From positions 30,859,587 to 30,923,586 of the forward strand of contig NC_058134.1 in the NCBI RefSeq assembly GCF_016433145.1: a DNA stretch of 64,000 nucleotides. Reading direction: 5' to 3'. Of the stretch, positions 6,699-52,600 are shown one piece after another. The DNA comes from Gracilinanus agilis. Lineage: Eukaryota. Each line of letters opens with the position of its first letter. Position 1 is the stretch's first letter. The position numbers were made by a program, and so were the translations under genes. The notes beneath the pieces were generated by a model, which had not been told where the DNA came from, did no database searches, and saw only the letters and a program-made list of their open reading frames with translations.

Positions 6699-9600
6699 TA
6701 TGGATCCCATTTCAGTGAAAAGCTTAAAGATCATTAAAACCACTACAAACTTTTCCCTAAAGTAATCCTGCCTGGTTTTTTGATGGGCTTCTGGGCATGC
6801 ATTCAAAAGATATTGTCCAAAACAAAGGGTTCCTCTTTTTTCTTTCTGATCTGACTGCTTTCAAGTGAGGGAAGCAAAGACTGCTGTAAGCCTCTGTGTA
6901 GGACAAAGCTTATGGTGGTGGCTTACTCTTCCCAGCTGAGTGATATAAAGCCATGAGCACAGGGCCCAGCAGTTGCTTCTGTCCCTTTTGCATACATTTT
7001 CTGGTTTAGGTGGAGTGTTGGAAATAGACTGAACTAGGCTGTGACCTTGTGAGCTTCAAAAGGTTAGAAGGATGAATTGCCAGAGGTCCAGTAGCAGAAG
7101 TCCATGCTAAAATTCAACAGACAAATTCAGTAAGGAGTGATGCCCTAAGGAACCAAGAAAGAACAATTGACCACTAGCTATGCTGGATTGTGGGTGCTGA
7201 ATACTTTGTAGAAACTGCATTAAATTTCAGTTTAAACCCACTCTCCCTAGGGACTGAGGAAGAATAGGAAAGAGTCCCCTCTGGTGCTAGGGGGAATGGT
7301 TTATGCTTCTGTTCACTGTAAAATTCCTAAAAAAAAAAATGGCTAAAAGCTAATTGATGTTAATTAAGCAATACTGAAGTGCTAATGACTTTAACAATAA
7401 ATGGTATAATGACATGGAAGAGATATTCATTGGTTAGTAATGCTGGTGGACCACATCATCATGGGAGCCTGAAACAGTAGCAATAGAAAAATAACCCCAA
7501 CCCCTCAGAGTATTCCTAAGGCCCTCAAGGTAAAATGTAGCTAGCTAGACTTGCTTTGGGTAGATCTGACTTGCCAGTGAGAGTGGGAATTGGAATAAGG
7601 AACTTCAGAGTTATAGATGAGTACTATCTTTTCAGCCCTTGCAACAGGCAATCTTTTTGCGAATTTTTAACCAGGATTCTATAATACAAGAAAATAAACA
7701 TGGTGCCATATTTCTGTTTTGCCTTTGGACATATGGTAAAACCAACTTTGCAAACTCCTTTACTTACCTTTTCAAGGAGAAATTCTGAATCATTCTTCTA
7801 TTTAACTTGAACTTCCATTTGCTATTTGTTTTCATGATAACAAGAATATCAAAAGAGATATGATTCCATTCCTCCAATGATCTGTCATTGAACAGTCTAC
7901 AAGGAATTCAATTTTAGAATGCCAGCAGCTTAGTTAATGCTTGTAAATGATTTAAAATTTCAGTGATCCTTAAATCTTTTGACTCTTCCCATCACTGCCA
8001 TTTTCACTGTAGAAATAAAGAGTATGGATGAGATTGTAGTCCATTTTGTATTCTTCATTTCATAGGTTTCCATGACTAAAGAAAGGATTCATCACTAAAT
8101 CTATTTGTACTCAGAAAATAAGTATCTATTTCTAGGACTGTACTCAAAGCCTTTCCAGCATTTTTTTTAAAAAAGGTGAATTAATTTGCCCAAGGTCAAA
8201 TAGGCAAGAAGTAATAGAGTGAGAATTTGAACCTAGACCTCCTGAATCAGAAGCTAATACATTGTCCAAGTTATTATACAAAATAATAATGCTGATCTAT
8301 GAGCAATCTTCCCTTAATGGCCAGTAGGGTCTCAGTCACTTAAAATCATACTCTAGATACGGGTCCCAAGAGAGGTGTTGCCCTAGGGAAGTTGCTCTAG
8401 TACAACTCCAACAGAGAAAACTCATGGTCAAGTCTCATCTGGTTTTCTAGTTGTGGTTCTTCCAATAACTGAAATATCATCACTCTCCCATCCTCTTCTA
8501 CAACTTTTGGCCAGTAGTTATCACACAACAAATCACGGTTCTAATAAATCTATCTTCCCTCAAAGGTTCATCCCAAAGGTATGGGAGGATTCTTCAGAGC
8601 TCCTTTCCTTGGCCAGAAATACCTAAACTCCCTATATCCAGCTCTTATCACAGTGCCAAGCACAGACCCCCACTTTGGGTTTCCCTCTATGCTCCAGCCT
8701 CTGACAACATCTCGCTTCAAAGAATGCCTGATGATGACAAAAATATACTATCTTTCTCATTTTCCAAACTCTTCTTTATCCCCCAAACTAAGACTGGGGC
8801 ACTGAATTATACAGCTATCCTCTCTACTTGTCTCTCAGCATGGCCCCCTTGTAGGTCTGGGAGCTCTTTTGAGCATATTCCCCTTACTGCTAGTTCTTGA
8901 GCTCCACAGAACTTCTTCCCACAATATGGGGGAGGCAAGAAGGATACATTTTTATAGCCCCTGCTACACATATTAGCCATAGTGAACAAGGACCCCTTTT
9001 CAATCACGTCATTCTTTTAGATTTGAAAACCATTTATAATGCCCTTCTCTTAAGCATCCCTTTAAAGACTGTAAAAAAATTCTGTAGGGCAATGAGTCTC
9101 TTGAGATTGCTGAGACATTTTTAATGCTTCATAGAGCATGAAGGAAGGAAACTAGATGCTTATAGGTCCCCTCAATTTTTAAGACACTGAAGGATTTGTT
9201 TTATTTCCCCACACCCTTAGAACACAGGCAAGCTGTGAATAATCATCATTGTAGTTATCCTTAATTCTTGCACAGTTAGTCCTTGTAGGTCAACCAGCTC
9301 TTTTTCTTATAGTTTATAAATTACACTGAAATAGTTCCTGCTGACCTGCTCATGCTGGCAGTATTCCCAGAAGTACCAACCCTGAAGGCATTGTTGAAAT
9401 GAGCAAATCCAGAAAGTTGATCTCAGCATAAATAAAATTTCAAGCTGAGATTTAAATTTTTAACACATTTGCAGTACTAAAACAAAATAGCCAGAGGAAC
9501 TTCGGCAAAATGACATCATTCAAATAACCAAATAATCATTTAAAGAGCTTAATATCAGAAAAGACATGTAATTGCAGCATAATGTTACTTGCGATTTCTC

Positions 9601-10154
9601 TCAAAACTGCTTTAAGGGTCACTATGTACTTCATATAATTATATATATGCCTTGGTAAAACATATGGATCCAATCAATGGAATGCTTCTTCATTTTTTAA
9701 ATGAGTTTTTCCATATGTGGAAATAAAAAGAGGAGATAATCAAAAACCTCTGAATTTCTCCTTGATTGATCAAAAGTACACACAGAATATCTGACTCATT
9801 AATATACCATTTTGTATATTTAAAAATGATATACCATAGTAAAAAAGCATCTTTAAAGTTTAAAATGTGGAACACACAAATGAAGTTTTAAAAAAATCTC
9901 ATATAAATATATCAAGGCTGAATGAACTTATAGAGACCATTCCAGTGAGCATATTCCCCTAGAAACATCCAGGGAGTCCAAGGACAAGGGTGACTCACTG
10001 ATCAGCCTTTGGGGATGATAAATTTCCTGACTACCACCAGCAAGGGTGGCCTACAATGAAAATAATTTTAGTACTTTAGAATGATGTGATAAGCCCTGAA
10101 TGGTCTCCTTAGTCACCGACCCCTAACCCCATAACATCAGAAGATGCTACATTG

Positions 10155-10548
10155 ACATTATGCACAGAGACTGATACACTGTGGTACAATCGAACATAAG
10201 GGACTTCTCTACTAGCAGCAATGCAAGGATCCAGAGCAAGGCTGAGGGACTGATGAGAAAGAAAACTAGCCACATTCAGAGGAAGAACTGTGGGAGGAGA
10301 AACACAGGAGAAAAACAATTGCTTGAACACATGGGCTGATGAGGATATTGGGGATGTAGACACGAAACAATAACTCTAATCCAGCTATTGATAATATGGA
10401 ATTAGGTCTTAATCAATGATACATGTAAAACCCAGTGGAACTGTGCATCAGCTAAGGGGGTATTGGGGGGCTTGGGAGAGAGGGAAAGAACATGAAACAT
10501 GTAACTAAGGGAAAATATTCAAAATTTAAATTAAAAAAAAAAAAAAAA
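10155..10548 (+). mobile_element. L1 3' end (opossum-type, 5'-truncated) with poly(A)
   Basis: Marsupial L1 3'UTR-like sequence and A-tail; 15-bp TSD GAAGATGCTACATTG / GAATATGCTACATTG (10140-10154, 10549-10563). Confidence 0.8.
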
Positions 10549-10665
10549 GAATATGCTACATTGGATAAAAGAAGAGGCTCCTGGCTGGTGACTCTCTTTG
10601 GCAGAGGTTTTACTACTCAAGAAGAAAGGATGCCATTGACTTCCTTATGCCAAGGTCATGGAGGT

Positions 10666-10937
10666 TGTAAGAATAAGAGCCAGAAACCAATGTTATGATA
10701 GAAGGGGGAGATAGAGTCGGATTGGGGTACCACATACCTCATCTTATAGGGAAGCCTCACCCCCAACTCCTGTGGGGCAGCACAACCATCCAGGTCACCC
10801 AGTTTAGGGGTGACACCCCCTCGAGGTCTCCCAGTGTATATTTGGCAAGAGGGGAGAACTAGAAGAGAGTCTCACCTCATAGACTCTATCTCCACCTTCT
10901 ATCATAACATTGGTTTCTGGCTCTTATTATTCTGACA
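10666..10937. mobile_element. Unclassified 272-bp TIR element (TGT...ACA, 4-bp TSD AGGT)
   Basis: Arms 10672-10718 and 10882-10928 are 46/47 reverse-complementary and extend to both termini with one more mismatch and a 3-nt indel. AGGT at 10662-10665 and 10938-10941. Confidence 0.85.
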
Positions 10938-12494
10938 AGGTTTCACCAACCTGCCAATCATCTAGGGCTGGGGAAATTCATCAGGCAAGCCTGAGCCGGG
11001 GAATATTTTTTGCCTTCTTTTAGTGTTTTTTTTTTTCTTTTTTAGTAGATCTGCAGTGGCAATGGGAGCAAAATGGTGTCCAGGGCAAAGGCTTCCAAAA
11101 CAGTTGTGATTGCAACAATGGCACAAATGAATTGAGTGGAAGGAAAGAATCAGCATCAGAGAGAAAAAAAAGGCCACCAGAAAGAAAATTTGATTAGTGC
11201 TTGAGCAGACTATACTCAGTAAAGGTAAAATATAAACTAATTATTGGCCTTGCAAAAACTATTTCAGTTTAAATGAGACATGAATATGAATCTCCCCACT
11301 GATTGTACTAGGAGTGATGTTACTAAGACTATCTTCAAATCATTCTGTGATGCACACCATGACATCTCATGCTTAGTATTCCCTTTTTTGAGTGGGATTA
11401 AACACATTCCATACCTAACTCACATTTGAACATTGAGCACCTTTTTACATACTCTGCACCTTTGAAAAAACCCTACACTAGGAGCAAAGGCAACATTACC
11501 ATAATTAAGAATTTTTCTCAGGAAGTTGACCTGAAAATGATGCACCAATAAAAGTGAGAATTGACGGCCTTACTTTCTCTTTGGAGAAGTCAGTCTTTTC
11601 CAGCCATGAGCCAAAGCCCCTTTGAACCCCAATGCTAGGAAACATAGCCATTCAGTAAATTCATGGATCTGTATCATCAGGACTTCCCCCAAAAGTGCAT
11701 ACAGCAGCTCATTCATGTTGGTGCCATAGAAGGAGCTCTGGGTTTAGGTTAAGATTCCACCACTACAGTGCCTGCCTTGCCTTAGGAAAGCCTCTCAGGG
11801 TCTCTCTAGGACTCAGTTTCCTCGTCTATAAAATGAGGGATTGGAGTAGATGACTTCTACGTTTCATTCCAGCTCTCAGTCTGAGACCTCATGCAGTGTG
11901 CCTTTCGTCCACAGAGGACCTAAGTAGCAAGCTAATACACTTCAGGAGGGGGATGTTTCCTCTCTCTATCTTTAATGTTATAGAAGTACCAATGCAAAGT
12001 AGAGCCTGTCCGTTACCCCTCATTTTTGTTAGAAAATAATAGCTAACATTATAGTAGGTATTGTACTAAATACTTTGAAATCATTATCTCATTTGGTTCT
12101 CACCATATCCCAGGGGAAATAGATGCTATTATTATCCCCATTTTATGGATGTAGAAACAGCAGAGTTTAATTGACTTGCCTAGGGTCACATAAATCTAGC
12201 CCAAAACACCTGCTAGCTGTGTGACCCTGGGCAAGTCACTTAACCTCTTTCTTTCTTCTTTTCTTCACCTGTAAAACAGGGATATAATAGAGTATATAAA
12301 AGGGGATATAAATGGGAATATAATAGCAACTATCTCCCATGGTAGTTATGAAAATAAAATGAGATAATATTTGTGAAAAAAATTTAACACAGTGGCTGGC
12401 ACAGAGTAAGTGCTAAATAAATACTTATTTCCTTTCTTTTCTTTCTTTTTTCCTATAAATTTTCCCTGCAAAGAAATGAATGAGCATTGTGAGT

Positions 12495-12735
12495 GGCTCA
12501 ACTGAAAAAAAGGAGTCATTAATGGTTTCATGCTAACTTGAAAGAAGGTTTCTAATGGAGTGTCATACTATGCTTTGCCCTGTGCCAATAGCATTTTCTT
12601 TATTGACTTGGATGCTTTGCTTATCAAATCTACACATAATGCAAAATCATTACAACTTGACACATTAAATATCAGTCAGGATCCAAAAAATTCTAGACAG
12701 GGCAGACTATGAGGATGAATTTATCAAGAGTAAAT
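12495..12735 (+). mobile_element. CR1/L3 reverse-transcriptase relic
   Basis: GTCATTAATGGTTTCATG...GTTTCTAATGGAGTG resembles the CR1 RT motif VINGS.S.W..V.SGVP; a downstream LIK(F) remnant follows. Confidence 0.6.
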
Positions 12736-12741
12736 AAAATG

Positions 12742-12903
12742 GGGGCAGCTGGGCAGCTCAGTGAATTGAGAGTCAGGCCCAGAGTTTAGGAGATGGGAGG
12801 TCCTGGGTTCAAATCTAACCTCAGACTCTTCCTATCTGTGTGACCCTGGGCAAATCACTTAACCTCCATTGCCTTGGAACCAATACATAGTATTGATTCC
12901 AAG
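12742..12903 (+). mobile_element. SINE1_Mdo-type SINE running into the gap
   Basis: GGGGCAGCTGGG...GGTTCAAATC (B-box)...TATTGATTCCAAG, then Ns. Confidence 0.8.
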
Positions 12904-13086
12904 NNNNNNNNNNNNNNNNNNNNNNNNNNNNNNNNNNNNNNNNNNNNNNNNNNNNNNNNNNNNNNNNNNNNNNNNNNNNNNNNNNNNNNNNNNNNNNNNN
13001 NNNNNNNNNNNNNNNNNNNNNNNNNNNNNNNNNNNNNNNNNNNNNNNNNNNNNNNNNNNNNNNNNNNNNNNNNNNNNNNNNNNNNN
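12904..13086. other. Assembly gap (183 N)
   Basis: Run of n characters. Confidence 1.
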
Positions 13087-13214
13087 ATAAAGGTAAAATG
13101 TCACATTTCCGTTAAGAAAAAGTAATTTTACGAGTATGAGATTCAGGAGGCATTTCATGCCTTAAAGATGTGTTTTTTTTTTAAATGGAAATTTTAAAAA
13201 ATATATTTAATCAA

Positions 13215-13805
13215 CTGTGTGACCCTGGGCAAATCACTTGACCCCCATTGCCTACCCTTACAACTCTTCTGCCTTGGAGCCAATACACAGTATTGACTCT
13301 GACATGGGAATTGTGCAGAGATAGCAGGGACCCTGCACCCCTTAACTCAGACAGGCTGTGAACAGGGAAATTCCCTTCCCCCTTCCTGCCCTTGTGACTC
13401 CCAAGGCAAAGACCATTGTCCTTGGAATTCCTTTAAGTTGAGATAGAGAAAGAGATACACCTCCAGAATGTCCCTGAGGGTCTGGGACAGACCCTGCACC
13501 CACAGAATGCCTGAGTGCAAGGAGTCATGTGCACACTACGGAAAAGGATACAAAAGGGGGAGAACTGGGGTACTCGGGGGAGCCTCCCATGGCTGCTCCA
13601 CTCATGCTGTCTTGCTGGCCATTAATCCTATCTTACTTAACGAATCTTTCTTTTTACTTTTAAGCTAAGCTTGGAGTCCTCTCATTCTTGAGAATGGTTT
13701 CCTTCTGGAACCCAGGGGTTCACCAATTTGCACCCCTATAACAACTCCAAGATGGAAGGTAAGGGTTTCAAAAAAAAATATATATATATATATGTACATA
13801 TATAT
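13215..13805 (+). mobile_element. 5'-truncated SINE1_Mdo-type SINE (host of the LTR) with (TA)n tail
   Basis: Core TGTGTGACCCTGGGCAAATCACTTGACCCCCATTGCC; 14-bp TSD ATATATTTAATCAA at 13201-13214 and 13806-13819. Confidence 0.85.
13300..13743 (+). mobile_element. Solo ERV LTR (444 bp) nested in a SINE
   Basis: TG...CA termini; 4-bp TSD ACTC (13296-13299, 13744-13747). It splits the SINE word TATTGACTCCAAGATGGAAGG. TATA-like GATACAAAAG; degenerate polyA signal AACGAA at 13639-13644. Confidence 0.85.
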
Positions 13806-15182
13806 ATATATTTAATCAAGAGCTCGTGTCTTTCCACTTTATTTAGTACCTTAATCTAAATTCTAGTTTCAACCTTCCCATGTTGCAAAGAGAAACAATT
13901 AAGCAAAAACCATCAATCATGGAGACTTTGTCTCATAACATATACAATATTCTGTCCTAGGAGTCCCCAAACCTCTATGCTATATGGGAGACAGAAAATG
14001 GAATTACATTGAACTCTTAAGTTTTATATGGCTGTGAAATTAATGAATGCAGTGTTATAGGAATTTTGTTTTCCTTTTATTCAATTTTATTATGCTATTC
14101 CTTCTGGAACATTTGGCTACCTGAAACCTGTTTCCTGTTAATATTAACCTCATATGATTAAAATGTGACTCATGGAATAATAATAGTGAGGGAAGACTTT
14201 TGACATTCTTTAGATAAGAAGCGGAAGGAGAGAAAGAAGGGAATTTGGCATAAGAATTTTCCTGATGCCAAACCTTTGGTTGTCTTTGTGACATATAAAT
14301 CACTTCCCATCATTTAGCCTTCAGTGACTTCTTTAAAATGTAGGTTGGTAGTTTTCTATAACTTCTCAGTGCTTAAATCTGTGACATACGATTTACTAAA
14401 ATATGCTAACAATTCATACAACTTTAATTGAAGGAAGCATAAGATAACGAATGTGTTTGATTAGACCTTGTGACCTTTATAACTTTAGATCATAAAGATT
14501 GTTACATGTTAAAAAAATTATTTCTCTGTCACTGACATAATTTTCTCTATAAAGGCTTTGTCAGAAATTTTAGTCTTGGTTCAGGGTTATCTTTCTACTT
14601 CCTAACCCTAGAGTGAAGTATCATAAAACCTAGGTTTTCCCCTTAATAATATCTGTGTTGTGATAAGTTTATTTGGCAGTAGAAGTCTCCTTACTATATG
14701 GTTGCAAAGAGGAGATATTTTCCCATAATAGCAATACTGAGCTGAGTTAAGAGCAGTGTGGCTTTCTGTAATCAGAATGTGCCAGTCAGCCCTACTGACC
14801 CCTGCCCTGGTCAGCTCAAATCAGAAGTGAAATTTTCAGACTGAGGAAACAAGATTTAGGAAGAACATTGATGGGAGAGCAGTCCAGAGGGGAAAGGGCC
14901 TCACATGTATACTGATTAAAGACCAATTAATAATAGTAATAGCATTTATATACCTCTTTAAGGTTTGAAAAGTACATTATCTCATTTTGTTTGTCAGCTG
15001 CAGTATATTAATGATTCCTTCTCTACACTCCTGCGTCCCATCCCATTTTCTACTAACATTGTCACTCTTACATTTCTGACCCTTCTTCCCTCTTGCCTAA
15101 CCTATTTTAAAGGTCTAATTAGGTTTCTTCTGCTTTTAGTCATGGACCTCTTCAATTAATTTTTTACATCTCTGCTTTAAAA

Positions 15183-44459: not shown

Positions 44460-44606
<147 letters not shown>

Positions 44607-45606
44607 TCATGCCTCCCCCCCCCCCCCGACCGTCGGCCGACTGCAGACCCGGGACATTTCCTGAGAATGCAACACCGGGCGGTGGTCTGGGGGCCAAGAG
44701 GATGCTGTCCAAGCCCACTGACACCCTCTGTCTGCCTCAGTCTCCTCAGCTGTCAAATGGTCCATATCTGTGAGCACTTAGCACTGTCCTGGCACACGGG
44801 GGGGTGAATGAACACTTGCTCCCTTCCACGTCTACCATCCTTACAAGAGGGTTCTGGGGAGCCGTTTGGCTCAGGGAACCCAAGGCCAGGCCTCCGGCCC
44901 TTCCTGCGCTTCTGCCTGGGCCCTGACACACAGTGCAGATTCCAAGCCGGAAGGTGCGGACTTTCACCCAGAACAAAACCACTAAGCCGGGTTCTCCGAG
45001 GCCTGTAAGCCCCGCTACTGGGGAGATGGAATCCGGGCCGGGCCAGGGCCGGAGCCGGCAGGCTCCCAAGTGGCCGCTCCCTGCCTTCCTGGACACACAC
45101 AAGTCGGGTCTTCATCATTAAGGACATGGACCGTGCCGCGAGGGGCCTTCGGGCTCCCTCGGCCATCCCTGCCGCCTCCAGGCCCTTTGGCTCAGCTTGT
45201 GCTCCCGGGGAAAAGCGGATCATTGATGACGGGTTTGATTAAGTTTGGCTGAACCAGACCTGCAAAGCGAGCGGCTAAAAGCTCCGAGGTTCTGCCTCTG
45301 CCCCAGCACAGGGACGGCGCGCCAGGCCGTGGCCGTGGAGCGGAGCTCCGGCGCCTCCTCAGGCCCCTTCCCAGGCTCTTCCTCCCTCTTGGCGGCCCCG
45401 GGGCAGGCCTCCGAGGTCCAGGTGGGCTTCTTCCTCTAAGGTCCAGCGGGCAGCCCCCCTCACTGACCCCCCCAAGTCCTCTCTTCTGCCATCTAGGCTT
45501 CCCCTGGCTGGCAGCTAGACCCCAAGGAGGCTGGACAGAACAAACTGCCATGCTAGAAGGGGTCCAAGGGCCGGGGGCTGACCCACCAGGGGAGAGATGG
45601 GTGTCA

Positions 45607-46440
<834 letters not shown>

Positions 46441-49400
46441 TCACAAAGTGCGTCTGAATAGCTAATGATAAAGCAGGAAAAACGGGATGAGGCTGAAAAT
46501 GCTAGGAAAAATGCTTAGAAAGGAAAACCCTCCATTTTTCACACTGAATCTCCGGAGCTGGTTATCTGCTGACCTCTTGTGTTGGTCGGCAATATTGCAT
46601 TCCTCCATCTAAAGATCATTTGTCCAAAACCGGCTGCTGCGGGCTCAAGCCCCAGCCGGGATACGCGGTAAAAGGCTTAAGAAAAAGTCAAAATGGAACA
46701 TGGTAGCCAAAGGTCTCTGCCTGCCTTTGAGCTCCAACATTCCCCCTGAGGGGCTGCTCTAGCCGGGCCTCCCCAAGACTTGTTTCCCAGGAAATGGGCA
46801 ATTCTGTGCTGCCCAGCAGGCTGACTTAGGAGGCAAACAGAGGCAGACAGATCAGAAAGAGAAGGGCACCTGGATGCCAAAGAAGGGACAGAAAACAGAA
46901 AGGAATGGTGACCTTTCTAGGGACTCAGCTGTTGGACTTTCTAGTAAAGGTATTTTGCTTGAAATACTAAATACTTTCTCTTTAAAAATCTGAATTCTCC
47001 AACAACCACTTTCCACAAAAACTACTCGAGTGAGTTGGGCTTTCTCTGAATTCATAAGTAAATTACTTCAAATGTTTCTTGACAACATGGGGTGCTGTGC
47101 AAAGTTCAGAGGAAGAAAGTATGAGGTCAGGAGAGCCTTTGTGGCAGGGCCAAGAACCAGAGGGTGGCCACAAGAGAAAAAGAGGGCTGCACGATGGCCT
47201 CCTCAGAGGCCTCTGCAGAGAGAGAAGGCAGGAGGGGGGTCCCCAGGGCTCCGGGAGAGAAGGGGAAGACGATGTTTATCAAGTTGGAGAGGTTGAAACT
47301 CTCCATGGTGCACTTCATTTGCCATTTTTTTGCCTGCTACAAAACAAAACATTTTCTTTCCTTTTTTGGCTCACCAACACATTAGAAATAGTTTGTTAGT
47401 GTTAATGCTAAGAGGGTGACTTCCAGCTCCTGAGATATGATGGAGCAGCCAGTGTGAGCCTGGACAAGGCAGCCGCTCTGGGCCAGCCTCAGTTTCCCCC
47501 TCCACAGGAATTCAACCAAACGGGGGCAGGAGACTAACAGAGCTCCCATTTCTTTACTGCCCAGAGATGCTGGAAGAGGATGCCTGAGGAGGAACCAGAA
47601 GGTCTCCTTCCGTGGTCTGATGTCACAGCCTGGAGGGGAAGAGCTTCGGACAAGCCTCTCGCAATGTCCAAGCGTTCCCTGGGTTGGGTCCTTGGATGTT
47701 CAATTTTAAACAAAAACATCCCATTTTGGAAAGCTGATGCGTGGCAAGTACCTCAAAATGACCCAAATAGCTTAAATTCAAGAGACAAGGGAAGCCCCAT
47801 CTTGTCATCGAGCAGCAACCCTGAGGGTTTGACAGAACAAACTGGATGTTTTGGGGGGCCCTGGGGCCTGGGGTCCGGCCTGCTGCTGGGCGCAGATTCC
47901 CCGAGTCCTCAGCTGGATCGTCATCCTTGTGGCCTCGCACCGGTGCAGCTCGCAGGGCTGGCCGAGAGCCGGTGTCCGACTGTCTGAAAACCTTACAGTG
48001 CCGTCGGGCTGTCCCTCGTCTGGAGAAGATCAAACCAGGCCTCCCTCCCCACCCCCGCCTGGGGGAGAAGTGAGCAGGAGGAGAGACGGACAGCACTCAG
48101 AGCCGGTCCGTGGGCCTCGTGGCCGTCTTTGTGGAGCAGCTCTTACACCAGCTCTGCAGAAAGCAGCCCCGGCGGGGCCCAGGGCCGGCCGCCTCTGGGG
48201 GGGGTGTCTGTCCTGACCCACCCGTGAAGGATGCCGAATCTGGACGAGGCTGGCCAGGCAGAGAAGGGCAGACACGGGCCGACTCCGCGGGCTGAGTGGG
48301 AGCCGGGCCGGAGGTGTCTGAAGGAACGGGGAGAGCCAGTGTGGACGGCTGGCCGTCAGCAGAGGACAAGTGAGGAGAGGAAACGAGCATCTATTAAGCA
48401 GCTACTGTGTGCTGTCCGGAGAGGATCTCTGGGAGGGAGGGAGATGCTCTGGGGATTCCCGTCTTACAGAGGACGACAGAGGCAAGGAGAGGTTAAGTGA
48501 CTTGCTCAGGGTCACAAACATGTCTGAGGCTGCCCCCCATAGAGGTCAAGAAGGACGAGGATGGGAAAAGGCCGTGCGGTCTGGAGCAGTCGCTGGTGTG
48601 TGGGCAGTCTGGGGGCCCGGCAGGGATGGCCGCTCTCGAGCAGCGAGGCCCGGCCTTTTGTTCTTTGAGCCCTCGGGTCTGGGTTCTGGGCAAGGGGTGG
48701 AGGCAGGGCGGCTGTGGGAGGCTGGAAGAAGCTGAGGAGGCTCAGAGCAGGGTGACGGCCCAATGTGAGGCCGTGGAAGAAGCTGCACTGGTCAAGGGGT
48801 CAAGGCTCAACCCCCAGCTCGGTTCCAGCTGCCTGGCACCACCGTCCCTCGGCCTCTTGGCCTGTGACGTCCTGTGTTGGCAGGCCCGAGGGACAGAGGA
48901 CCACGGACGTCTCAAGGCTCCGCTCCAGAGGTCGCCGTCCCTCCAGCCCTGCAGTCCCCCAGAGGGGCTGTTTCCCCATTTCTCTTCCAGGTCAGTGGTT
49001 GGTCAGCGGTCAGCCAGTGGCCTCTAGGCGCTCTCCTTAGGCTCATGGCATGGGTCCTTCGTCCATTCGAGGGCCCTCTCTGCCCCGACCGCCTGGGGTG
49101 GCCCTAATTTGGGGCTGGCCGCAGGGTTGGGCCGGAGTCCTCGGGGGGCCCTGGGCTCTCCCCAAGTCCAGGCAGGCTGTCCCCGGGCTGCACTTCCACT
49201 TCAGCTCTCCCTCAGAGGCCTCAGGCCGGGCACAGCGGCCGTCCAGGACGGCAGGAGCCTGGCGGCCTTACAACGTGCCCAGGGGAGGCACAGGACACGG
49301 AGGCCTCAGAGGTGAAGTGACCGGAGCATCCGAGGCCGCTGGACCTCAGAGAGGAGCCATCCGGCCACTTCCAGGCTGGGATCCTGTCCCGGGGGGCTGC

Positions 49401-49471
49401 CGCTCCACCCCCCGCCTCACTGCACCCACCTGTCTGTGGCCAGACGGGGCCGGCCTCGCACGCAGCCTTAC

Positions 49472-49604
49472 CTTGGGAGGCTTGAAGGGGTATTCGGGCG
49501 TAAAGGTGATGTCCAGGAAGAACACGCCGCCCTCATAGACCGACCCCGGAGGCCCCAGAATCGTCGACCTCCATTCGTAGATGTTGTCGCCTTTGGGCCC
49601 GGCA
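49472..49604 (-). CDS. UBE2E1: Ubiquitin-conjugating enzyme E2 E1, internal coding exon
   Basis: cttcctccgcag|TGCCGGG...CCCAAG|gtaagg gives [45 protein letters not shown]; 133 nt. TPEY marks E1 (E2E2 has SPDY). Confidence 0.95.
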
Positions 49605-52600
49605 CTGCGGAGGAAGCACAGACAAGGCGGCGGCGATTAGAGGCTCCCCCGCCCGGCTCCCCAATCTGTCGGCACAGACTCGGGCCTCTCAGCTTACTAA
49701 AGCGCCTGCCCTGCCCCCCATTTTCCCCAAAGCGTCCCCCAGAGGGACGAGGCTGGTTGGGAGCCTCCAGAGCGTGGCGCCTCTGTGTCCACACAAGGCC
49801 AGGGGAGGCCCCTGGGAGGCCGGGGCTGACCGCGGCCGCCCACGTCTTCGGTTGTGCTTCTACGAGCCCTCGAATGGCAAACCCCATCCTGGCTGTGGCG
49901 CGTCCCATGGAGGGGAGGCCGAGGCGGGCCGAGAGCCTGCAGGGATGTGGCGGCGAACAAGAGGGCGCGTCAGAGGCGGTGGCGGACGGACAGAAAGACA
50001 AGGGGGAAAGCTTGAGAGGCCGCAGGTTGGGTCCAACACGGGGAACCCCAGACTGCGGGTCAGGAACCGCCGAGGTGGGGGCGGTGACTGACAGGTGGGG
50101 GAGAGGATGGGAGCTCCAGCCGAGCCCCAGGCCCCCCAGCCCCTTCTGGGGCCCCGTCATTCAGATGTGGTGAAGATTCGTGGCCAAGGCTTCCCCTCAC
50201 TTGCTGGGGCTCCGGACATCATTCCCATCCACGGGAACCCCCCCAATCCTCTCCCAAGTTGGGTGCTATTCCCTGTGTTTGAGATTTGGGGTGGAGGAAA
50301 CTTAGGGAGAGTTTCTTTTTTAAAATGTTCAATTTAAAAGGCATTTTATCCTAGTCAGGAAGAGGCCCCTGTGATGAGGGGGGCCGCAGGGGCCCCCACA
50401 TCCCGGCTAGGACTTCCCACAGCATGGCTCCTGCCTCAAGGTTCGCTGCAGGCCTCTCACAGCTTCTCTCCAGCCTTGGCCATCAGTGACTACAAGAACC
50501 CCAGAAGCCCGGGCCGGGGCGGAGGGGAGGAGGGGGGGAAGCGGGGTCTTCAGGGCTCCCCCCGGTGGCCGCCCCCTTCAGATGGCAGGCTGGGCTCTAA
50601 GCAGGGAAGGGGTGATGTGCGGTGGTCGCTCCCATCAGAGCTCCTGGGACAAACCCCTGCCGAGTGGGCGCCAGGCCTGCCATCCCTCTGGGCCTCAAGC
50701 TCAGAACGCTTTAGGGGCGCCTTTTGCTCGGAGCCCTGTTGGTTTCAGTGGCAAGCTCCCCTGTTCCCCCTGAAGGATGAGGCTCCTTTTCTCAAGCATT
50801 GACTGGGAGGCAGACACAACTGCGTCTGATGCTCTCTCCATCTGGTTTGGTGGCTGACTTTTTTCCCTTCAAATGATGTGGATTTTTAGGGCTATTCTTT
50901 GTATCCACCATGACCTAAGCTAGATTCCCAGTAGAGCCCCCCATCCCCATCTCCTCCCTCAAACCTCCCCCAAAGCAGAGCCAGGGACCTTGGGAAACCT
51001 GGGGGTGTAGACCACAAAACGACCCAGTGGGCCTGAACCACATTAAAATGTCCAGGGAAACCTCTAACAAAAGATAAAAATACTAACAATGTGAATTTGT
51101 GGCTTTCCGAGTCAATGGGTGGCCTGCAGGGATCCACGGCTAGTTGAGTTTGGCTCCAGGTCTAATAAAATCAAGACTCGAAGAAAGGCCTTTGGGGGGC
51201 TCCGGGGACGCCCCCTGCTCCCCGCTTCTCACTGTCCCTGGATAGGCAGAGCTAAGGCTCTTTCTGGTTAGGGGCAACCCCCCCCCCCCGGCCTTCTGGC
51301 CATGGAGGTGGCCACCAGCCACCGCTCCTGCCTTCAGGACGGCCTCTTCTCCCAAAGCTGCTGGGAGGGAGTCGGGGCCCGAGGGGCCGTGGGAAGGGGC
51401 TAGAAAAGCAGCAGGAGAGGGAAGGCCGAGGCGGGAGACCTCCAGGGCTGCTGGAATCTTTGATTTAACTGGAAACCAAGATATTGGATCCAACAATTAG
51501 GATCCGTTTTTTAAAAGTGCCGATTCTGAATGAGAAGACAACTGGCCAGTGCCCACAGCAGGACGGGGGCCTTTCCCAGGACACGGCCCTTTGGGCTCTC
51601 AGATGAGGGCAGCTGTCGGACAGGAAGTCCAACAAGTCTGTACGGGGGTCTCGGGGCAGAGGAAGGGAAAGAGGGAGGCGGCCGGCAGAGGCCCCAGAGC
51701 GAGTCTGTCACCCTCAACGCCAGGACTAGCTGGGCAGGCCTTGGGGCCTTTCTGCCGGGACCCTGATCAAGGAGAGCAGGGGGTGACGGGGCCAGGTGGA
51801 CGGCTGCAGAGAAGAGGGGTGACTTGCTCCAATGCTCTCAGGGCTGGCACTGGACCTTTCGGGGTGGCAATCCTGGGCTCCAATGGCAGCTGGAAGGATT
51901 TCCTCCTCTGCTGAGGGGCTCCTCATGACCCACCTGGGACAAATTCTACTCACTGACATGAAACCATTTTTCTGATACTAAATTTCGTTCCTTTCTGCTT
52001 CTTTGGCTTGTTCCTAGCTCTGCCTATGGGGGCCGGACAGAACCAGCCCCCTTATCTCCTGCCCAACCCCCCAGCCTCCAACTGTCTGTCTAGGGACACC
52101 AACCCAAAGCCTACAGATATGGCCCACCTTATGCTGGGGCACCAAGAAGGGAGCTCCAGCCAGGTCTGCCCAGGGTCCCTCTAGCCACTCACCTAGAACT
52201 CCGGGTGAGGCCAGGAACCCCCCAGACCTCTTCAGGGTAACACTTGGGGCTCCTTACACCCCCCAATGTACACCCAGTGGGATCACAGCCCACACGCTGC
52301 CTCCAGAGCCCGTCACCAGGGTGCCCCCTCCTCCTGGCAGCCACTCTAAATGTGGCCCAAGAGCGGCCGGAGAAGTTTCGTCCAAGGCTCCAGGGCTGTC
52401 CAGGGGGCTCTGGGCTGAGCACCTTCGGTACTTCTGGCACATCCCCGAATGGCATCTGGGGCCTCCACACCACCCTGGCACTTGCTCATCTTGGAAGGAC
52501 GTAAAAACCTTTCTTCAGTTTTGTCTGCAGCAGATTCACTGAATGATCATGACTCCATTTTGGGGTGGTTTCTCTTTTTTCTATCAGTCACAGCCCCCCG

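Follow-up and report, generated by a model that had tools for sequence, protein, structure and literature searches.

The 272-bp insertion at positions 10666–10937 of the window (the whole 64,000-nt stretch of Gracilinanus agilis DNA analysed here) is a remnant of an endogenous retrovirus (ERV) long terminal repeat (LTR), an identity that is near certain, and it carries the same viral end, that of U5, at both sides. It is flanked by a 4-bp target-site duplication (TSD), its inner junction lies at an overlap matching at five of six positions, and its two-arm structure exists once in the genome. It belongs, moreover, to a recurrent class: at least 15 other same-end elements of this ERV family are present in the genome, each with its own junction. 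We consider it somewhat probable that the viral DNA, while still being synthesised, folded back on itself either ahead of integration or in the course of it, and that integrase joined the resulting ends. The single 272-bp element is inert; the class constitutes a germline record of failed retroviral copying or integration that still leaves a clean integrase footprint.

Structure of the element

An earlier note on this DNA had described an AGGT duplication at both flanks, termini TGTAA and TGTCA, a 46/47 inverted repeat, a 163-bp spacer and no obvious AATAAA. All five observations hold (Table 1): both copies of AGGT are in place, the element begins with TGTAA and its reverse complement with TGTCA, the 47-bp core of the arms differs at one site, 163 nt separate the two arms, and no AATAAA is visible within the 272 bp. 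Among the 37 inverted pairs returned by a repeat search of positions 8000–14000, the longest was the 50-nt pair 10669–10718/10882–10931, with 96% complementarity. Aligned in full, the arms (53 bp on the left, 56 bp on the right) differ by two substitutions and one 3-bp (TTA) indel, the left arm being one TTA unit shorter than the U5 end it copies.

Table 1 Features of the insertion and its flanks (positions in the window)
Feature	Positions	Strand	Remark
Left target-site duplication, AGGT	10662..10665	+	TSD of the family is 4 bp
Left arm, inverted copy of the element's own last ~56 bp of U5 end	10666..10718	−	
Inner junction, 6-bp overlap AGAGTC	10713..10718	not applicable	unique in genome
Last 225 bp of U5 from a class I ERV LTR of ~955 bp	10713..10937	+	
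Spacer, 163 bp	10719..10881	+	ordinary U5 sequence
Right arm	10882..10937	+	native U5 terminus
Right target-site duplication, AGGT	10938..10941	+	read from the sequence

Positions 10713–10937 correspond to positions 732–956 of LTR copy L011 at 88% identity, and the left arm to positions 901–956 of the L011-numbered LTR in inverted orientation, the window strand being the sense strand. The overlap at the inner junction reads AGAATC in most family copies and thus matches AGAGTC at five of six positions. The first 6–9 bases of the left arm are also compatible with the family's U3 start. The right arm carries two changes, one of which recurs in a single copy among 101 others and the other in none; the left arm has neither.

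Contigs derived from the reads of one public run, possibly made from the source sample, cover 10560–10701 with zero differences at depth 30, and also span 10899–11600 at depth 26 (among the 8 of 1,626 pieces listed). Both outer junctions lie in such contigs at single-copy depth, and the left one holds 36 bp of the left arm.

Copy number

The inner junction has one match genome-wide, with a gapped pattern as well as with a 28-mer allowing up to 3 mismatches; by comparison, 335 ordinary LTR copies carry the same two exact motifs. The 47-bp arm type, searched genome-wide within 3 mismatches, is confined to the two arms of this element, which indicates that the left arm was copied from the element itself or its virion and from no other locus. 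Genome searches by junction, 28-mer and arm returned no second copy of the two-arm unit. No paralogous empty site was found either, as the left flank is unique in the genome and has no paralogous flank. The mobile family supposed in the earlier note thus did not survive the copy count: the two-arm structure is single-copy in this genome.

The source family

A search of the element against its own genome yielded 4,796 first-look candidates. The 39 other copies scored match only from 48/56 to 256/272 of the query, at 87–91% identity, and all of them lack the left arm at that position. Homology continues leftward for ~700–790 bp in 24 of 29 fetched copies, up to a sharp TG start, and delimits an LTR unit of ~955 bp with TG...CA ends. 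Exact 4-bp TSDs flank 27 of the 49 copies with both ends visible, a set partly selected for TGG adjoining the LTR end, and most of the others show one mismatch. AATAAA lies ~390 bp from the LTR right end in 13 of the 14 copies listed, outside the portion retained here. Family copies thus have the U3–R–U5 order and a poly(A) signal, and the 272-bp element retains U5 only. Dividing the 335 exact two-motif matches by 5/63 gives a family size of roughly 4,200, or about 4,000 in round figures.

At 195 sites the LTR right end is followed by GTTT/ATTT-TGGCAGAGCCAGC, that is, by a conserved TGG-led stretch resembling a primer-binding site (PBS) that starts 4 nt after the LTR; it has a likeness to a tRNA-Arg site and is a putative PBS. 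A PBS search at 0–3 spacer bases had returned solo LTRs only, the site sitting 4 nt out. At 177 sites the LTR left end follows an internal 3′ region that continues from the integrase gene. Internal pieces match RT_RNaseH_2, RNase_H, rve and MLVIN_C above Pfam cut-offs and, judged by the RNase H, rve and MLVIN_C domain matches, pol is gamma-like. Gag_p30 gave one sub-cut-off match, in L076, and none in two pieces of L172. LTR sequence in direct orientation flanks the interior in L196, L206, L207 and L210; one LTR is internally deleted in most such copies. Direct-repeat LTRs, a pol with integrase and RNase H and a PBS-like site together make the family a class I ERV and the window strand its sense strand.

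Directly before the 3′ LTR, where a polypurine tract would be expected, none is recognisable; the junction is a mixed-base stretch conserved in at least 27 of 30 copies. This lowers the status of the family as a canonical member of its class and leaves the LTR identity unaffected. A conserved hairpin accompanies the mixed-base stretch before the 3′ LTR in L082–L111:1380–1509.

The element shares with ordinary class I (gamma-like, ERV1-type) LTRs and solo LTRs its sequence source, the TG...CA ends, the 4-bp TSD and a pol in sister copies. Unlike them, it ends in an outward-facing U5 terminus on both sides and has lost U3, R and the beginning of U5. Its lack of U3, R, PBS and coding sequence would leave it untranscribed, unpackaged and immobile.

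A recurrent class of same-end elements

TSDs could be scored for 16 siblings: 12 small elements with U3 at both ends (U3–U3), the long U3–U3 elements L208 and L211 and the long U5–U5 elements L136 and L077/L080; the window element forms a 17th row. An exact direct 4-bp TSD is present in 13 of the 16 (14 of 17 with the window element), L208, L211, L136 and L077/L080 among them. An inverted copy of the host flank was found in none of the same-end elements, beyond two palindromic TSDs.

The search for small U3–U3 elements returned 13 matches of 50–533 bp (L216–L228), of which 12 are independent, two representing one duplicated locus. Nine of these 12 have exact TSDs, one has a single mismatch and two have two mismatches. 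Several U3–U3 junctions contain insertions, and those of L217 and L222 reuse a native TTTGT/ACAAA inverted repeat. With a search sensitivity of ~10%, the count suggests, as a rough estimate, ~120 small U3–U3 elements among ~4,200 copies. A search for further small U5–U5 elements found none at a sensitivity of only ~6–7%. L198 and L178 were discarded as U3–U3 candidates, the motif being native internal sequence.

The long U5–U5 elements enclose parts of pol. L136 has a 44-bp inverted arm ahead of RNase H and integrase sequence. L077/L080 comprises a complete LTR in inverted orientation, a stretch of 7SL and pol; it is inserted in an L1 reading frame and has an assembly gap inside. Between the inverted LTR and pol, L077:1073–1320 corresponds to 7SL RNA positions 1–267+, from the first base (Rfam RF00017, E 8e-17, just below the gathering score). 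Retrovirions package 7SL, which was also patched into one recombinant (PMC4997597).

Long same-end elements are known from two junction samples only. The 3′-junction sample covers 59 of 177 sites, 100 of which were listed (L162 was dropped, the motif missing at the expected place), and the 5′-junction sample 40 of 195 sites, again with 100 listed and with three already-seen loci skipped. In the former, which is biased to survivors unable to recombine into solo LTRs, elements start with a U3 stub at 21 of 59 sites and with an inverted U5 end at 3 of 59, against 0 of 214 control windows, and a complete direct 5′ LTR was found at none of the 59 within the 8.5–9.9 kb fetched. In the 5′-junction sample, which also supplied L208 and L211, mirror forms that begin with a complete 5′ LTR and, beyond the interior, end in a short U5 stub and the TSD were recognised by script in L175, L200, L209 and L213 and by eye in L176. 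L112 and L113 contain multi-segment inversions.

Kept outside the count of 16 were L161 and L183, which have swapped ends (one U3 and one U5), L199, with a one-mismatch TSD, and L144 and L181, whose TSDs are not scorable. The swapped ends of L161 and L183 consist of an inverted U5 on the left and an inverted U3 on the right, with a 4-bp TSD. At the 5′ ends of L113–L174, many copies retain 3–20 bp of the U3 start followed by pol/gag-region sequence, with the TSD intact; several of these stubs are 12–19 bp long.

Timing of arm formation

Between 5′ U3 remnants and the 3′ LTRs of the same copies, 76 of 850 bases differ (8.9%); for short U3–U3 arms the figure is 33 of 361 unascertained bases (9.1%, one poor alignment included). 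As the two figures agree at ~9%, the short doubled arms were likely formed at about the time of insertion. The arms of L208 differ at 7 of 84 positions and those of L136 at 4 of 44 columns. The arms of the window element, with 1 difference in 47 (P = 0.07) or 2 in 53 (P = 0.14) under the 8.9% expectation, are closer than the class average. Minority states common to both of its arms recur in 6–23% of 101 other copies. The description of the insertion as fairly recent in the earlier note is weakly upheld by the few private changes in this copy, and does not extend to the class, which dates to the family's insertion period.

Long inverted arms behave differently. Those of L112, L144 and L211 are 97.7%, 99.2% and 97.8% alike and are thus younger or homogenised, whereas those of L077 are 84% alike and those of L181 are patchy, at 88% and 96%. 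The patchiness of L181 helps the case that conversion may have occurred between long arms. For L112, L144, L211 and L181, arm conversion, later events and assembly effects are all possible sources of the similarity.

Origin of the doubled ends

If the viral DNA folded back on itself, minus-strand strong-stop DNA would have stalled after ~225 nt and primed on its own 5′ part, or on that of a co-packaged twin, at AGA(A/G)TC. Copy-back would then have run to the viral terminus and halted there, where the template ends, to yield two outward-facing U5 ends; integrase would have created the TSD, and host gap repair would have completed the insertion. The 13 exact TSDs among 16 siblings and the lack of any copied flank signify that copying did not run past the end of the viral sequence, which is what a template terminating at that point would give, and the 7SL sequence captured in L077 points to reverse transcription inside the particle. 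DNA of 50–54 bp is too stiff to be integrated as one duplex, so that elements of this size, at least, need a host joining step; for the 50-bp members such a step is likely in addition to fold-back. The account also leaves the absent polypurine tract before the 3′ LTR unexplained.

Alternatively, a normal provirus or solo LTR may have been inserted first and reshaped later by host double-strand-break repair, through deletion of the first ~730 bp, reverse copying of the U5 end and rejoining at the terminal inverted repeat of the LTR. Such repair would proceed by snap-back synthesis with microhomology joining, an activity of polymerase theta. Such a course of events is, in our estimate, unlikely, although several observations that weigh against fold-back would suit it. 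Microhomology is present at both junctions (TGTAAG at the terminus, five of six positions inside), and the 5–9-bp terminal inverted repeat of the LTR lets host repair keep both the TG and the TSD. The arms of the window element are closer than its insertion age would give; the near-identical long arms of L112, L144 and L211 are far more alike than 9% divergence allows. The symmetry between U3 and U5 ends is explained as easily by host repair as by reverse transcription, and the insertions at several U3–U3 junctions also speak for it. One preprint reports a role of host repair factors in shaping defective HIV-1 proviruses (bioRxiv 10.64898/2026.03.31.715508). Host repair, however, is at odds with the flanks, which no same-end element among the 16 has copied and which retain exact direct TSDs in 13, with the dating of short arms to insertion, and with the private changes of the right arm, absent from the left. 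Breakpoints clustered in the first 10–20 bp of the LTR and the 7SL capture in L077 argue against it as well.

In a further scenario, one virion supplied two U5 ends on separate viral DNA molecules that were broken or incomplete and had been trimmed to 53 and 225 bp. A single integrase complex would have inserted both, and host enzymes would have linked their inner ends at the five-of-six overlap. Only one junction is required, and the exact termini, the TSD, the insertion-age arms and the 50-bp members are all accounted for; the 84% arms of L077 could derive from two genome copies. Taken alone, this scenario gives no account of the 7SL capture or of the multi-segment inversions in L112 and L113, and the reuse of TTTGT/ACAAA in L217 and L222 fits fold-back, though end joining would serve also. 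We hold it to be decidedly improbable.

An assembly chimera, produced by a fold-back read at an ordinary LTR fragment, would agree with the absence of the inner junction from the 8 of 1,626 read pieces listed, and its probability is nevertheless minimal, given arms that differ at two sites and one indel, a read contig that passes from the unique left flank into the left arm for 36 bp with zero differences at single-copy depth, and a TSD, which a chimera would not generate. Deletion through a G-quadruplex was rejected by reasoning only, the retained side being the wrong one.

Relation to Ginger transposons

The earlier note had presented the insertion as a candidate Ginger-like MITE, a non-autonomous DNA transposon moved by cut-and-paste through an integrase-like transposase. 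Ginger elements have terminal inverted repeats (TIRs) of ~40–270 bp, termini TGTNR and 4-bp TSDs, with target preferences CCGG/CCGT for Ginger1 and RTATAY for Ginger2, according to their published description (PMC2836005). Measured against those published values, the 53/56-bp arms lie inside the TIR range, TGTAA and TGTCA both fit TGTNR, a pattern that LTRs share, and the TSD has the same length; AGGT, however, is neither CCGG/CCGT nor within RTATAY, the TSD sequences of the siblings are varied, and the right end reads TGTCA. Against the same description, the element has no copy family and no stand-alone transposase, and every one of its bases derives from the ERV LTR. The integrase linked to these ends is not the stand-alone enzyme expected of an autonomous Ginger partner; it sits within a pol that carries RNase H and MLVIN_C. 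The 12 small siblings, too, all have different junctions. Copies of the LTR family flank a pol-bearing interior as direct repeats, the very arrangement that the note had named as contrary to its headline. The Ginger-type reading is thereby refuted in this genome, and as an origin of the element it is barely conceivable. What the note had offered as its second option, an aberrant ERV product in which integrase inserted two identical LTR ends, finds support here, except that the arms belong to unequal U5 pieces of 53 and 225 bp; the family, moreover, formed such products repeatedly, with either LTR end.

In the same paper, Bao et al. (2010) suggest that a pair of opposed LTRs enclosing an integrase region might have given rise to the Ginger TIRs (PMC2836005). 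L136 and L077 have this layout of opposed LTR ends around the integrase region, and neither shows any sign of ever having moved. These siblings make the proposal testable with real examples, although movement is not shown. Tentatively, and as a possibility more than an expectation, integrase may routinely insert products formed when stalled strong-stop DNA folds back, in which case the family would shed ~100 MITE-shaped same-end elements, ~3% of insertions, by an undescribed LTR-to-TIR route that includes, in the U5–U5 elements around the integrase region (L136, L077), the intermediate proposed for the origin of Ginger. In any case, mammalian TGT...ACA elements with 4-bp TSDs and inverted arms can be LTR debris and not DNA transposons.

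Comparison with known proviral defects

Defects made before integration with retention of the integrase repeat are known from exogenous retroviruses. HTLV-1 proviruses lacking the 5′ LTR have lost internal and LTR sequence and retain the repeat (PMC6950816), and for HIV-1 proviruses with asymmetric LTRs or inversions, misalignment during reverse transcription was proposed and inversions were seen (PMC9278108), as far as the available parts of these papers go. Deletions and internal inversions are described there, whereas in the present class the same LTR end stands at both sides and the elements, 50 bp to 10 kb long, persist as fossils fixed in the germline. In the literature searched, with most subscription journals outside its reach, no report of same-end proviruses was found.

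Snap-back templated insertions arise in microhomology-mediated end joining and likewise combine a deletion with a short inverted copy of nearby sequence at microhomology. In contrast to them, the copy here ends precisely where the viral sequence does, and the class is as old as the insertions.

Additional observations

A common solo-LTR form of the family (L002, L007, L018, L030, L039, L046 and L053) has ~30 extra bases at its right end, consisting of the start of the PBS-like site joined to a repeat of the terminal ~19 bp of U5; the TSD follows. As regards the genomic surroundings, window positions ~10000–10548 hold the 3′ terminal portion of an L1-like element, poly(A) included, ~115 bp left of the insertion. 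Three exons at 44460–49610 on the minus strand presumably belong, from their peptide motifs, to a UBE2E-type ubiquitin-conjugating enzyme gene, and the insertion lies ~33 kb past the 3′ end of this UBE2E-like gene.
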